Source: an uncultured Gammaproteobacteria bacterium (GTDB taxonomy: Bacteria > Patescibacteriota > Microgenomatia > Levybacterales > GWA1-39-11). From it: 64,000 nucleotides of DNA. A program made the position numbers and the translations under genes. The stretch covers positions 64,557 to 128,556 of the forward strand of contig CAYPEN010000003.1 of assembly GCA_964409875.1 (NCBI GenBank), given 5' to 3'. Positions 14,114-63,361 of the stretch are shown in pieces. Below the pieces are notes generated by a model. It saw nothing but the letters and a program-made list of their open reading frames with translations. It was not told the origin of the DNA and did not search any database. Position 1 is the first letter of the stretch; every line of letters starts with the position of its first letter.

Positions 14114-15907
14114 TTATGACTTCATCCAGGAAAAGAAATCATCGTAAGAAAGGGTGTTCAGGATGTCCTTTTTTTCGCACCACCCTCGTCTTGCAACTGC
14201 AACGCCATAAAACATGTTGTCCATATGCGTTAACGCATGGCTGTCAGTGTCTATTACAAAGCGTATTCCTTGTTCCTTTGCGTCCTTCACCAAAGAGTCT
14301 GGAAGATCCAGCCGCTCGGGCCAGGCATTTATTTCAAGAGCCTTGTTGTTTTCTTTACAAAATGCAAATAATTTTTCCCAATCAAGCTGATAACCGGTGC
14401 GTGAATTGATGAGTCTGCCGGTCGGGTGGGCTAGAATTCTTGCCTTTGGATGAGAAAGACCTTTTATTACACGCTCGGTCATTTTATCAATCGGAGTATT
14501 AAAGGAGCTGTGTATTGAGACAATTGCTCCATCGATAAGGTCAAGGCTACGCTCGTCCAGGGCAAGCTCGCCGGATGCAAGAATATCAACTTCAAGTAAA
14601 TTTATTATACGAACACTTTTTCTGTTCGAAGATTTTTCTTGTACGGTTTTAAGTTGTTCAATTTTTTCCCTCCTTTTTTGGAGAATGTCATAAATCTCAT
14701 TTTTTGAATGGTTCATAATGCTTGGGTTGTGCTCTGAAAAACCGAGGTAAGAGTATCCAAGCACCTCTGCTTTTTTGAGCATATCAGTCATCGAAGCATT
14801 TCCATAATCATGACTTGAATCAATTGGATAATCAGAATGAATATGGAGGTCCCCTTTGATATCGGAAAGTTCGATAAGGTTAGGCAAGGTGCCGTTAAGA
14901 GCCGCTTCTATTTCTCCTTCATTCTCACGGATTTCAGGAGGAATCCAATCCATACCTAAAAAACGGTAGAATTTTTCTTCGGTATCAAATTCCTTGAGCC
15001 TATTGTCCTCACCCGTGATTTTTATTCCACGTTCAGAAAGCGAGAAGCCTTTTTTTATGGCAAATTCTCGAAGAGCTACGTTATGATGTTTGCTTCCCGT
15101 AAAATGCTGAAGTAGAGAGCCAAACTGAGCTGGTGGGAGCACTAGAAGGTCTATATGCTTGCCTCCACCTATGAGGAGAGATGCGGTAGTTGGTCCCTTT
15201 TCAATAACGCGCTCCTTTCCGGGAAATGAGACAAAATGTTCAATAACAGCACTTGGATTTTTAGAGGTTACCGCAAAGTCAACGTCGCCAATTGTCGAGA
15301 CCATTCGTCTTAAACTTCCAAGCGGCATGATCTGTTCAACATCTTTCGATTTCTCCATGTGCTTTATGATTTCCTGGGCAAGCGAGAACGCATAGGGAAG
15401 CACCATTCTTCCAGTTTTTGTTGTTCCTGTTTTGTATTCTGAAATAGCCTGCAATATGTCTTGTTGCGATTTTTCACCAAATCCGTCAAGCTCGGCAATC
15501 CTGCCTTCTTGGGCTATCTTTTCTATTTCCCCAATAACAGTTGTGGGATTGGTAAGCTTGAAATGTGTAACGAGTTTGAATGCCTTTTTGGGTCCGAAGG
15601 ATGGGATATCAAGAAGCGGGAAGACTGCAGGAGAAACATCTTTCATAACTTCTTCATAATGCTTTACGTGTCCTGTCATAAAGAGTTCCGTTAAGCGCTC
15701 CTGCATTGTCGCCCCGATTCCGGAAATTTTATCGAGACTTTGTTGTTTGAAAAGTGTAAAAAGCTCTGTCGAGAGTTTTTCAACGACATCAGCAGCCTTT
15801 TGGTAAGCGATTATTTGAAATTTGTATTTCTTTTCGTTTTGAATTGAATATACGGCAGCAACCTGGCGAAAAAGTTTAGCAATTTCAAGGTTGGTAAAGC
15901 CTTTCAT
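14114..15907 (-). CDS. polX: DNA polymerase X family protein with C-terminal PHP phosphoesterase domain
   Basis: Pol beta-like N-terminus (HhH, GSxxRGxxxxxDxD-type region) and a C-terminal PHP His-rich domain. Start probably at the internal Met (15907). Confidence 0.85.
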   Translation of the reverse strand: MKGFTNLEIAKLFRQVAAVYSIQNEKKYKFQIIAYQKAADVVEKLSTELFTLFKQQSLDKISGIGATMQERLTELFMTGHVKHYEEVMKDVSPAVFPLLDIPSFGPKKAFKLVTHFKLTNPTTVIGEIEKIAQEGRIAELDGFGEKSQQDILQAISEYKTGTTKTGRMVLPYAFSLAQEIIKHMEKSKDVEQIMPLGSLRRMVSTIGDVDFAVTSKNPSAVIEHFVSFPGKERVIEKGPTTASLLIGGGKHIDLLVLPPAQFGSLLQHFTGSKHHNVALREFAIKKGFSLSERGIKITGEDNRLKEFDTEEKFYRFLGMDWIPPEIRENEGEIEAALNGTLPNLIELSDIKGDLHIHSDYPIDSSHDYGNASMTDMLKKAEVLGYSYLGFSEHNPSIMNHSKNEIYDILQKRREKIEQLKTVQEKSSNRKSVRIINLLEVDILASGELALDERSLDLIDGAIVSIHSSFNTPIDKMTERVIKGLSHPKARILAHPTGRLINSRTGYQLDWEKLFAFCKENNKALEINAWPERLDLPDSLVKDAKEQGIRFVIDTDSHALTHMDNMFYGVAVARRGWCEKKDILNTLSYDDFFSWMKS

Positions 15908-16099
15908 GCGTTTATAATAGCACAAAAGACACTATTATTTGCTGTTTTGAGGCCATTGACTGACGATGTTCTTGTTGGTAGAATAGTTGAACCAAAGATT
16001 GAAGATTTTGGGGTGAAGCCAACTATTGCGCTACGCGCTGGGGTGGCATTCAAAGCTCTGAAAGAGCTTTTCATCCACCCCAAAAAATTTTATTTTTTT

Positions 16100-16173
16100 G
16101 GGGTGGTAGCTCAGTTGATTAGAGCGCTTCCCTGTCACGGAAGAGGTCGCGGGTTTGAGTCCCGTTCACCCCG
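16100..16173 (+). tRNA. tRNA-Asp (GTC)
   Basis: Folded by hand as a cloverleaf: acceptor GGGGTGG/TCACCCC, anticodon loop CTGTCAC. No encoded CCA. Confidence 0.9.
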
Positions 16174-16270
16174 CAAAAAAGCGTTGGGGTAATACAAACC
16201 GGTCACGGAAGATGTCGCGTTGTTAGCTTTGCTAACCAGCAAGCTGGAATGAGTCCCGTTCACCCCGCAA
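16174..16270 (+). repeat. Degenerate partial copy of the tRNA-Asp 3' half (CACGGAAGAtGTCGCG...GAGTCCCGTTCACCCCGCAAAA) with a ~30-nt insertion
   Basis: Direct comparison with the tRNA at 16130-16180. The final 23 nt are identical. Confidence 0.8.
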
Positions 16271-16335
16271 AAAGCCTAAGCATTTTTCTGCCCCGAATTC
16301 ATTATCCTGCCACTATATATTTGATAACTATAACT

Positions 16336-16968
16336 ATGCCGAGAAAAATAAAAAACCGTTACGAAAGTATCCTTGATAAAAGATACGATTTTGATATCCA
16401 AAAATTGATGGATAGCTCTAATTCATATAAGAGTCTTATCTACGGAATTGTGACAGTCGTCGTGCTCTTTATTGTGCTTGCGCTTGGTCTTCGTACGATG
16501 TCACAAAATAAAGCGCAAATAGATGACGGTGCTGTCATGACGCAAAAATCCACAGAGACCATGTCTGACAACCGATACGTAGTTACGGAAGGAGAGACAC
16601 TGTGGAGTATTGCCGAAAAATCATACAACGACGGTTTTAAATGGAGGGATATTGCAAAAGCTAACAATATTTCCGATCCTACTACTCTTGAGAAAGGAAC
16701 ACGTCTTGTTATCCCCAAGTTAGCATCAGCGCAAAAATCATCACCTGCGATGATTAATGCAACTCCAACCCCCGTCCAACCGGGACAGCAGGTGGACGCA
16801 AAAATTACCGGAAACTCATACAAAACCGTTCATGGCGACTATCTTTGGGAAATTGCAGTAAGAGCCTATGGGGATGGATACCGTTGGGTTGATATCGCCT
16901 CAGCTAACAACATGACCAATCCTGACCTTATTTTCTCCGGAAAAGAATTAAAGCTCCCCAGACCGTAG
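16336..16968 (+). CDS. LysM-domain peptidoglycan-binding protein (N-terminal TM anchor, two LysM repeats)
   Basis: Two LysM motifs (GETLWSIAEKSY...LVIP and GDYLWEIAVRAY...ELKLP) and a TM helix after MPRKIK. Confidence 0.85.
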   Translation: MPRKIKNRYESILDKRYDFDIQKLMDSSNSYKSLIYGIVTVVVLFIVLALGLRTMSQNKAQIDDGAVMTQKSTETMSDNRYVVTEGETLWSIAEKSYNDGFKWRDIAKANNISDPTTLEKGTRLVIPKLASAQKSSPAMINATPTPVQPGQQVDAKITGNSYKTVHGDYLWEIAVRAYGDGYRWVDIASANNMTNPDLIFSGKELKLPRP

Positions 16969-17016
16969 AGTTTTTCATAAAAATATATTTCCCGTGTGTT
17001 AAAATTGCAATTAAGC

Positions 17017-17157
17017 GGGAGTAGTTCAGTGGTAAGCTGCATTAAATGCATCTTGAAATTGCATCGCAATTTTAAGTAAGCTTGCCACCTCACATTAAAA
17101 ATTAAGCGGGAGTAGTTCAGTGGTAAGAAAAGCTTGCCACCTCACATTAAAAATTAA
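17017..17157 (+). repeat. Two tandem units of a tRNA-Gly 5' fragment (GCGGGAGTAGTTCAGTGGTAAG) each followed by a shared spacer (AAGCTTGCCACCTCACATTAAAAATTAA), directly abutting the intact tRNA-Gly
   Basis: Direct repeat inspection. Unit 1 carries an extra ~40-nt insert. Confidence 0.85.
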
Positions 17158-17229
17158 GCGGGAGTAGTTCAGTGGTAGAATGCTTCCTTCCCAAGGAAGA
17201 GGTCGCCGGTTCAAATCCGGTCTCCCGCT
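17158..17229 (+). tRNA. tRNA-Gly (CCC)
   Basis: Cloverleaf: acceptor GCGGGAG/CTCCCGC, anticodon loop TTCCCAA, T-loop TTCAAAT. Confidence 0.9.
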
Positions 17230-17276
17230 CACATTTTTTATTGAAAATCCGATTAAAATAAGCTACTCTTGAATTT

Positions 17277-17618
17277 GTGAAAAAAGTAATTCTCGAAACC
17301 ATCCTGGGGCTTCTTCTTTTTCTTGGAGGTTTTGGCCTTATTTTTTCTGGTCTTACCGGCGTAATGCAGGGAATTTTTGGGATATTTGGTATGGGCGGCG
17401 GAGTACTTGTTGTTGCCATTGGTGTATTCCTGCTTTATAAAGCAGGAACTAAGGATATACAGAAACCGAATTTTGTGACCTCTATAGTTCCTGAAAATGG
17501 TGAAAAAAAGAGTATTCTTGAAAAAAACCAGGAGTTAGTTGATGATTACAACAAGACCATGAGGGCCCGCGACAAATTGAAAATTTTAAAAATGTCTGCT
17601 GCCGCTGACGAAAAATAA
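17277..17618 (+). CDS. Small hypothetical membrane protein (2 TM, GTG start)
   Basis: 113 aa with Gly-rich TM helices and a charged C-terminal tail. Confidence 0.5.
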   Translation: MKKVILETILGLLLFLGGFGLIFSGLTGVMQGIFGIFGMGGGVLVVAIGVFLLYKAGTKDIQKPNFVTSIVPENGEKKSILEKNQELVDDYNKTMRARDKLKILKMSAAADEK

Positions 17619-63139: not shown

Positions 63140-63171
63140 CAGATAAGTATTAACCTGTGATTAATATTTGG

Positions 63172-63289
63172 AATGGCTAAAAGAGTTTGGTTATAGAATA
63201 ATTGTGAATGGGCGGCTAAACAAGTTTGGCCACCCAATAAGTGTGAATAGGGCGGCTAAACAAGTTTGGCCACCCAATAAGTGTGAGTA
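63172..63289 (+). repeat. Three tandem ~39-nt units (GGGCGGCTAAACAAGTTTGGCCACCCAATAAGTGTGARTA; first unit degenerate), each beginning with the 5' end of the adjacent tRNA-Lys
   Basis: Direct inspection. Units 2 and 3 are identical except for 1 nt. The tRNA-Lys 5' end GGGCGGCTA starts every unit. Confidence 0.85.
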
Positions 63290-63361
63290 GGGCGGCTAGC
63301 TCAATGGTAGAGCAATTCCCTCTTAAGGAATCGGTTCAGGGTTCGAGTCCCTGGCCGCTCA
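63290..63361 (+). tRNA. tRNA-Lys (CTT)
   Basis: Cloverleaf: acceptor GGGCGGC/GCCGCTC, anticodon loop CTCTTAA. Confidence 0.9.

Follow-up and report, generated by a model that had tools for sequence, protein, structure and literature searches.

The 5' leaders of bacterial precursor tRNAs (pre-tRNAs) are usually regarded as disposable, and partial tRNA copies beside tRNA genes are routinely taken as footprints of mobile elements. Closer parallels to the locus described here are tRNA-like signals for RNase P and RNase Z, such as the mascRNA of MALAT1, mitochondrial tRNA punctuation and the hairpin or minihelix substrates of RNase P, as well as spacers of tRNA precursors, among which the leuZ 3' external transcribed spacer (3'ETS) of E. 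coli reportedly acts as a sponge for a small RNA. The locus in question is a tRNA-Asp(GTC) gene that lies between pieces of its own sequence in a 64-kb stretch of DNA from an uncultured bacterium (the window, meaning the whole stretch that was analysed). The window has a G+C content of 40% and belongs to Candidatus Levybacteria (Candidate Phyla Radiation, CPR; Patescibacteria): the neighbouring PolX is 87% identical to a protein from a Levyibacteriota metagenome-assembled genome, and many further homologues carry that name. With moderate confidence, the flanking pieces are interpreted as old tRNA-derived cis elements of one transcription unit, which have been selectively kept in the Levybacteria clade, probably for a role in folding or processing of the pre-tRNA.

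Like the known tRNA-like processing signals, the pieces around tRNA-Asp are derived from tRNA, include an acceptor-like stem, occupy the space ahead of a tRNA or between a tRNA and an mRNA, and duplicate the context of a cleavage site. They differ in that the T-loop of the downstream piece is non-canonical (AA at positions 54/55), that cleavage is putative and that the leader also pairs with the neighbouring genuine tRNA. With functional precursor spacers they share conserved non-tRNA parts with a role of their own, putative in this case, but here the spacers are derived from, and complementary to, the tRNA itself. As in attenuator or riboswitch leaders, with their terminator, antiterminator and anti-antiterminator strands, a middle strand has two alternative partners, whereas the platform would be the tRNA acceptor stem, and with it the access of RNase P, rather than a terminator or a ribosome-binding site. 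Neither a classical expression platform nor a ligand domain was detected, as there is no terminator-like site in positions 15850-17300, i.e. up to the following tRNA-Gly gene, and none of the Rfam families matches the leader. Literature searches found no described equivalent of such leaders, which is not proof of absence. Judged from sequence, the repeats are rated as real and as more than a scar, with a putative function, and as a variant of tRNA-like structures and functional tRNA-precursor spacers.

The downstream copy and its conservation

The preliminary description of the window had reported partial self-copies on both sides of tRNA-Asp, and the repeats are real. The 23-nt sequence GAGTCCCGTTCACCCCGCAAAAA occurs exactly twice in the window (Table 1) and was never matched in 100 shuffles; the 71 nt between the two copies agree with the spacing of ~70 nt given before. 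In a repeat search the direct repeat extends to 31 nt at 90% identity, and a second block of 21 nt (16131-16151 against 16199-16219) is likewise 90% identical. Local alignment to the tRNA was significant for the downstream flank (p<0.003). The reported duplication of the 3' half with an insertion is present, with the corrections that the insertion between the two blocks comprises 26 nt (TTGTTAGCTTTGCTAACCAGCAAGCT) instead of about 30, without counterpart in the tRNA, and that the copy is also preceded by the 5'-acceptor-like GGGGTA. The resulting 82-nt element is a rearranged paralogue of the adjacent tRNA-Asp. In comparison with the tRNA it has no D arm, has lost the 5' half of the anticodon stem, in place of which a variable linker is found, and carries AA for TT in the T-loop. 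The tRNA gene itself does not encode CCA and has the A19/U56 variant of the D-loop/T-loop pair, which is usually G19/C56.

A covariance-model search had been suggested in the preliminary description for the possibility that 16174-16270 encodes another true tRNA, interrupted by an intron or insertion, which would form a tandem pair with tRNA-Asp. In favour of this possibility, the segment retains GGGGT...ACCCC, a GTC triplet that sits in a loop-like context, and the greater part of the 3' strand of the T arm. However, the Rfam tRNA model (RF00005) gave no match in 16174-16280 at E<=10, and ARAGORN found 0 genes in the element at default thresholds, with or without introns, and, at 70% thresholds, gave only calls that contradicted each other. 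There is neither a D arm nor a 5' strand of the anticodon stem, a fixed mismatch interrupts the T stem, the T-loop reads AAUGAGU, and the fold has a z-score of only -0.7, all of which makes a second tRNA hardly credible. A tRNA-like anticodon arm of the element (AATGCAACCT/AGAGGTCGCGTT) was also considered and rejected, being found in L002, L136 and L130 but not in the window, L135 or L137 (L-numbers denote the loci of relatives that were compared, and W the locus of the window).

Syntenic loci were reached through PolX and LysM homologues. The window clade (PolX 81-87%) comprises L002, L130, L127, L128, L136, L135 and L137, and a second clade consists of L004 and L117, whose PolX is ~60% identical to that of the window and 75% between the two. 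Contigs that end inside tRNA-Asp limit the joint view of both flanks; L127 and L128 end in the D arm and L001 in the T arm, and the breaks in the D arm may be due to sequence common to other tRNAs. The downstream element is present at the same site in all six loci of the window clade in which that side is visible (W, L002, L136, L130, L135 and L137) and is absent from L004 and L117. Its 66-nt core has a mean pairwise identity of 93% (range 88-98.5%) and the 26-nt insertion one of 88% (range 81-100%), in an alignment built from exactly extracted copies. Four-fold degenerate sites of the LysM and PolX genes in the same genomes are only 29-44% identical, which equals saturation, except in the close pair L002/L136 (74%). 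The linker of about 10 nt after GGGGTA and the flanks of the element are variable. All six copies share the AA of the T-loop and the insertion as fixed differences, so that gene conversion with the tRNA does not account for the conservation. On these rates the element appears to be under constraint, evolving far slower than neutral sites.

The element has two candidate folded forms. The GGGGT/ACCCC acceptor-like closure is invariant (6/6), while both a T-arm-like reading and the rod-like hairpin given by RNAalifold fit the remainder, and the T stem with its one fixed mismatch competes with other predicted hairpins.

The two 23-nt repeats had been likened to attL/attR cores, that is, to the scar left after loss of an element once inserted in tRNA-Asp. 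A direct repeat that runs from the anticodon loop through the 3' end and trailer of a tRNA is indeed the classic footprint of tyrosine integrases at tRNA genes, and the two arrangements are alike in this respect. Real, uninterrupted 3' halves of tRNA-Gly also occur in viral contigs. On the other hand, the 50 open reading frames (ORFs) covering the 64-kb window contain no integrase, recombinase or transposase domain (Pfam), and the 71 nt between the repeats hold neither an integrase gene nor cargo. Among the 2.9 million viral contigs of IMG/VR none contains the 19-nt core or the 23-nt insertion pattern, phage and plasmid BLAST matches cover the tRNA only, and no attP was found in the data searched. 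The conserved 26-nt insertion and the 5'-acceptor remnant are unexpected for an att fragment, the element has become fixed, being present in each of the six close relatives and 93% conserved despite saturated neutral sites, as expected under purifying selection across the clade, and integration at the 3' end cannot yield the 5'-type pieces that lie upstream. An excision scar is therefore extremely unlikely. Of the earlier alternative between a scar and a pseudo-tRNA, what holds is that the copy is tRNA-derived and not a functional tRNA. An origin by tandem tRNA duplication followed by internal deletion is probable in place of site-specific recombination.

Matches to a T-arm pattern in seven viral contigs were rejected as unrelated to the tRNA-Asp locus, since they proved to be tRNA-Gly genes or att-like 3' halves. 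The latter, in the IMG/VR contigs L145-L148, run from the anticodon loop to the 3' end of tRNA-Gly without the 5' half and look like typical attP-type fragments.

The 5' leader and its pairing with the tRNA

Upstream of tRNA-Asp the preliminary description had noted two degenerate copies of the tRNA 5' end and one 3'-end-like strand. The motifs are present (GGGGTG at 16010 and 16040, CACCCC at 16076), and 6 of the 18 GGGGTG/CACCCC sites of the window fall within 16010-16266, i.e. 257 nt of 64 kb. Local alignment of the upstream 200 nt to the tRNA was not significant (p~0.27), because the pieces are too short as bare sequence matches; their significance rests on clustering, structure and conservation. 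They turned out to be strands of a conserved, covarying leader structure and not loose copies. The segment 16005-16090 folds better than its shuffles, with a z-score of -4.0.

Eight leaders from the two clades were compared. In all eight, hairpin B, hairpin C and a short spacer hairpin D abutting the tRNA follow in the same order. In alignment A2, which is hand-made, N-padded and fitted to the structure, 97% of the cells are paired (97-99.5% over the whole comparison) and 17 of 30 pairs are changed on both sides, a result that 0 of 500 shuffles reached; sliding the partners against each other lowers pairing to 42-57% (42-55% on alignment A2). Hairpin B occurs as GCGC/GCGC, GCAGGC/GCCTGC, GCAGC/GCTGC and TGGGTGG/CCACCCA. 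Within hairpin C an internal loop separates an inner hairpin from an acceptor-like helix. The inner hairpin covaries at six of its eight pairs, appearing as AAAGCTCT/AGAGCTTT, AGGATC/GATCCT, TTGAGC/GCTCAA and GGGGTT/AATCCT, and in the acceptor-like helix C5:C3, 89% of the cells are paired and 5/8 sequences have one A.C mismatch. Folded alone, each leader again gave hairpin B, the inner hairpin and a long hairpin that includes nt 1-7 of the tRNA, with z-scores of -4.0 to -6.9 and 0/200 shuffles as good. The leader thus contains three conserved, covarying hairpins.

The first of the noted 5'-end copies, GGGGTGAA, is present in W and L002 only and is therefore not a conserved feature. Its complement TTCACCCC is found both at the 3' end of the tRNA (16165-16172) and near the point where the downstream element ends (16259-16266), and the predicted minimum-energy fold of the W precursor joins GGGGTGAA to the 3'-most CACCCC. 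ARAGORN, at a threshold of 80%, reports 16030-16108 as a weak tRNA-Phe(gaa), with the inner hairpin as anticodon arm; this call is not credible as a tRNA and reflects the tRNA-like layout.

The ability of the 3'-end-like strand to pair with the true 5' end of the tRNA was also borne out, as CCACCCCAAAAAA (16075-16087) and TTTTTTGGGGTGG (16094-16106) form an inverted repeat of 13 nt without mismatch. In this helix, C3 and the 5' arm of hairpin D pair with the 3' arm of hairpin D and nt 1-7 of the tRNA. A continuous helix of 13-15 bp is formed in 8/8 leaders, with 99% of the cells paired and seven spacer pairs doubly changed, and C3 faces the tRNA 5' strand with 55/56 cells paired. Three consecutive strands, GGGGTGG, CCACCCC and the GGGGTGG of the tRNA, are arranged such that the middle one can pair with either neighbour. 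The two helices that share C3 are mutually exclusive, both are conserved and both states appear in predicted folds. In the minimum-energy fold of the whole precursor the tRNA 5' strand is paired to the leader and not to its own 3' strand in 6/6 loci.

In the mechanism proposed for this arrangement, the leader would be a two-state folding device. In the first state CCACCCC would hold the 5' acceptor strand of the tRNA, so that neither an acceptor stem nor a substrate for RNase P could form, and in the second state the mimic strand would capture CCACCCC and leave the tRNA free to fold and be processed. The outcome would be a timing or regulation of 5' maturation. For the downstream element, which lies between tRNA-Asp and the mRNA of the following LysM gene, a role as a module for processing or stabilisation is proposed.

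Covariation alone does not separate RNA from DNA hairpins, and perfect palindromes of 13-15 bp straddle the start of the tRNA, as would be found if the inverted repeats were operators for a protein or hairpins in recombination or replication. However, the helix sequences are wholly different among relatives while pairing is kept, unlike what sequence-specific protein binding would leave. Several G.U pairs fit an RNA of the sense strand and occur on that strand only, being A.C mismatches on the other. In addition, the elements lie 3' of a conserved promoter, inside the tRNA unit, and there is no transposase or recombinase gene nearby. A feature acting at the level of DNA is thus considered very unlikely.

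Table 1. Positions in the window of the tRNA-Asp gene, its flanking elements and related features.
Feature	Position	Strand	Basis or remark
Predicted sigma-70-type promoter of the tRNA-Asp unit	15956-15984	+	TTGACT, 17 nt, TGgTAGAAT (extended -10); 10/12 matches, TG present
5' leader of tRNA-Asp, ~115 nt	15985-16099	+	between conserved promoter and tRNA
GGGGTGAA, first 5'-end copy of the preliminary description	16010-16017	+	perfect complement of TTCACCCC
Leader hairpin B (GCGC-TAC-GCGC)	16028-16038	+	100% of cells paired, 4 pairs doubly changed
Leader hairpin C, acceptor-stem mimic	16040-16081	+	z -5.9, 0/200 shuffles as good
Hairpin C, strand C5 (GGGGTGG)	16040-16046		
Hairpin C, inner hairpin (AAAGCTCT-GAA-AGAGCTTT)	16052-16070		
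Hairpin C, strand C3 (CCACCCC)	16075-16081		
Anti-acceptor hairpin S2: C3 + A6 (16075-16087) with T6 + tRNA nt 1-7 (16094-16106)	16075-16106	+	13-nt perfect inverted repeat
tRNA-Asp(GTC)	16100-16173	+	Rfam tRNA 64.6 bits; ARAGORN
23-nt direct repeat, copy 1 (tRNA T-loop to trailer)	16157-16179	+	exact match
23-nt direct repeat, copy 2	16251-16273	+	exact match
Downstream tRNA-Asp-derived element, 82 nt	16186-16267	+	repeats to tRNA-Asp
Downstream element, GGGGTA	16186-16191		
Downstream element, variable linker	16192-16201		
Downstream element, conserved 66-nt core	16202-16267		
Downstream element, 26-nt insertion in core	16220-16245		
LysM-domain membrane protein gene	16336-16968	+	Pfam LysM
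tRNA-Gly decoys, GCGGGAGTAGTTCAGTGGTAAG	17015-17036, 17106-17127		first 22 nt of the tRNA, one change
tRNA-Gly decoys, CTTGCCACCTCACATTAAAAATTAA	17081-17105, 17133-17157		

Distribution among relatives and decoys at other tRNA genes

The tRNA-Asp sequence is 100% identical in W, L002, L004, L117, L130 and L136. A structured leader was found in 8/8 loci with the identical A19/U56 tRNA-Asp and in 0/6 loci with the G19/C56 type. The latter type occurs in L131, L003 and L132, whose PolX (68-72%) is closer to W or intermediate, and in L134, L006 and L140. This distribution departs from PolX similarity and suggests that the leader and tRNA were transferred or replaced as a cassette. An A19 D-loop is common in many metagenomic tRNAs, such as those for Ala, Gly and Val, and because it is so widespread a metagenome scan with the D-loop pattern TAGCTCAGTTGATTAGAGCG gained a single relative, L117.

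A different arrangement was seen in L131 (1064-1349, minus strand), where a genuine tRNA-Asp is nested between the 5' fragment (positions 1-53) and the 3' fragment (57-75) of another copy. The 5' fragment consists of positions 1-11, an insertion of ~50 nt in the D-loop and then positions 22-53, and its anticodon loop is damaged. The complementary sequences GCGCTCTTTTTGCAC and GTGCAAAAAGCGCGC adjoin the fragments, and the break lies within one nucleotide of the insertion point in the downstream element of the window. A tRNA between the fragments of another copy, with complementary sequences adjoining, resembles the split, permuted or nested tRNA genes of archaea and red algae; however, L131 belongs to a bacterium without a known splicing endonuclease. 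Because the outer copy is degenerate, with its 50-nt D-loop insertion and damaged anticodon loop, it probably represents a gene that was disrupted rather than one that is spliced.

Leaders with copies of the tRNA 5' end were also found at other tRNA genes of the window. The tRNA-Gly(CCC) gene at 17158 has an extended -10 of its own (TGTGTTAAAAT, 16995-17005) and a leader of two tandem units, in each of which the spacer ATTAAAAATTAA is followed by nt 1-22 of the tRNA and by CTTGCCACCTCAC, which closes a hairpin; the first unit carries an insert of 44 nt. In front of the tRNA-Lys(CTT) gene at 63290 (window 63170-63289) stand two tandem units of 40 nt with a single base difference, GGGCGGCTAAACAAGTTTGGCCACCCAATAAGTGTGA(A/G)TA; their starts are at 63210 and 63250, and each opens with nt 1-9 of the tRNA. 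Further upstream lies a degenerate third unit, which carries a TATAGAAT -10. An upstream decoy of tRNA-Lys(TTT) was not significant (p 0.25) and was rejected. Comparable tRNA-Gly decoys of varying size are present in relatives. An exact upstream self-copy of an 8-mer was found for 7/25 tRNAs of Levybacteria against 8/266 in unrelated metagenome loci, where the 25 are not independent, as the same two genes were sampled across relatives. In 162 kb of Levybacteria loci the stem GGTAAG...CTTGCC was counted 10 times, without exception in leaders of tRNA-Asp or tRNA-Gly (17031 and 17122 of the window, as well as L117, L132, L136 and L137), and twice in 733 kb of unrelated DNA; these GGTAAG...CTTGCC(ACC) stems look like a family of leader hairpins.

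At the site of tRNA-Gly(CCC), L002 has the gene GCGGGGTTCGTATACC... (1100-1171) without decoys and L136 the gene GCGGGAGTAGTTCAGT... (1833-1905) with two decoys. The LysM proteins of these two loci are 91% identical, and tRNA genes appear to have been replaced at this site.

The decoys raise the question whether the leader hairpins and the downstream element are cut out by RNase P and RNase Z and then act alone as minihelix RNAs, for example as decoys of, or competitors for, the enzymes of processing, CCA addition or aminoacylation; their pairing with the tRNA would then be incidental. The decoys do repeat the context of an RNase P site, with the same spacer of ~10-14 nt followed by the first 9-22 nt of the tRNA. 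Bacterial RNase P is known to cut model hairpins of 11-12 bp, the enrichment of the GGTAAG...CTTGCC(ACC) stem in these leaders fits such a use, and an acceptor-like closure is present both in the downstream element (GGGGT/ACCCC) and in hairpin C (GGGGTGG/CCACCCC). Yet the mimic strand, with its 89% pairing, is less conserved than the strand facing the tRNA (55/56), and in 8/8 leaders the spacer hairpin adjoins the C3:tRNA helix without a gap, for which a free-standing minihelix would have no need. Independent minihelix RNAs are therefore judged unlikely as the primary explanation.

The pieces could also be neutral debris, i.e. decaying, functionless remnants of pseudo-tRNAs whose conservation is only apparent, through close genomes or gene conversion. 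The sequences are clearly tRNA-derived, internally deleted copies of very different size stand before tRNA-Gly and tRNA-Lys, some tandem units are identical and hence recent, the elements are missing from several related clades, and the downstream element has no convincing fold. This account meets the contrast between four-fold sites at 29-44% and a core at 88-98.5%, together with an insertion that is conserved at 81-100% and has no donor from which it could be converted. The differences from the tRNA are fixed in all copies, unlike after conversion, the leader helices stay paired through 17 double changes, and CCACCCC is complementary to the tRNA 5' end in both clades despite a PolX identity of 60%. 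Neutral debris is on this evidence quite improbable.

Transcription unit and significance

The unit in which the elements would act consists of the promoter, the structured leader of ~115 nt, tRNA-Asp, the 82-nt tRNA-derived element and the LysM gene. The strong promoter-like sequence lies ~115 nt 5' of tRNA-Asp, and the pattern TTGAC(T/G)-17-TAGAAT together with the adjoining GAACCAAA is shared by L002, L004, L117, L127, L128, L130, L136 and L140. From its position, transcription of tRNA-Asp would start near 15991. Between tRNA-Asp and the LysM gene only one weak promoter-like match was found (9/12, first hexamer at 16321). A promoter of the LysM gene inside the downstream element was considered and rejected, there being no convincing -35/-10 there. 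The LysM gene is probably co-transcribed with tRNA-Asp; in L117 its start codon is ~50 nt from the tRNA. An N-terminal extension of the LysM protein from the ATG at 16249 was rejected as well, as its frame is not maintained in relatives.

The surrounding order of PolX, tRNA-Asp, LysM gene and tRNA-Gly is conserved and of housekeeping character. MurT, an M48 peptidase, LemA and PolX are encoded on the minus strand, followed by tRNA-Asp, the LysM membrane protein, tRNA-Gly, CTP synthase and L19. The -10 region of the promoter (15976-15990, TGGTAGAATAGTTGA) resembles positions 5-19 of the tRNA (16104-16118, TGGTAGCTCAGTTGA) at 12/15 positions, which may be chance or a further tRNA-derived piece. 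Two CTGCC motifs ~20 nt apart stand 5' of the LysM start codon (window 16288-16311); CTGCC-like repeats were seen at that place in every Levybacteria locus looked at, tRNA copy or not, and may be regulatory sequences for the LysM gene. Positions 17277-17618, behind tRNA-Gly, contain an ORF of 113 amino acids without Pfam match, with an ORF of equal size there in L135 and L136.

Several points weigh against the interpretation of the flanking pieces as selectively kept cis elements. A tandem duplication automatically makes the former 3' acceptor strand complementary to the 5' strand of the next tRNA, and only the persistence of this complementarity argues for selection. A forced cloverleaf is 4-10 kcal/mol less stable than the fold with the leader, a gap no larger than the model error for RNAs of 180-300 nt and calculated without the tertiary contacts of the tRNA. 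The covariation counts come from the hand-made alignment, and MAFFT with RNAalifold on the raw leaders recovers the long hairpin only in part. The downstream element folds no better than its shuffles and is too invariant to fix a structure, with one compensatory event and a covariation term of -0.3. The leaders of tRNA-Gly keep no comparable anti-acceptor strand, and L003, L132, L134, L006 and L140 do without both the leader structure and the downstream element. Promoter, transcription start and co-transcription with the LysM gene are all predicted only.

A broader reading would see in Levybacteria, and perhaps in other CPR bacteria, a new class of cis-regulatory RNA in which an anti-acceptor strand and a releasing mimic gate RNase P, with the Gly and Lys decoys and the D-armless downstream module included. 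This generalisation is put forward as a tentative and rather doubtful one. Divergent RNase P RNAs are common in CPR bacteria, and in many cases the motif for binding of the 3' CCA is absent (PMC8172020), which fits tRNA genes without encoded CCA, as is the case for tRNA-Asp here.

For annotation, the practical consequence is that repeats flanking tRNA genes of CPR bacteria should not be annotated as att sites where no integrase is present. If the leader does act as a switch, it would represent a cis-acting control point of tRNA maturation in ultra-small uncultured bacteria with unusual RNase P RNAs (PMC8172020), and it would show a route from duplicated tRNA genes to regulatory RNA.

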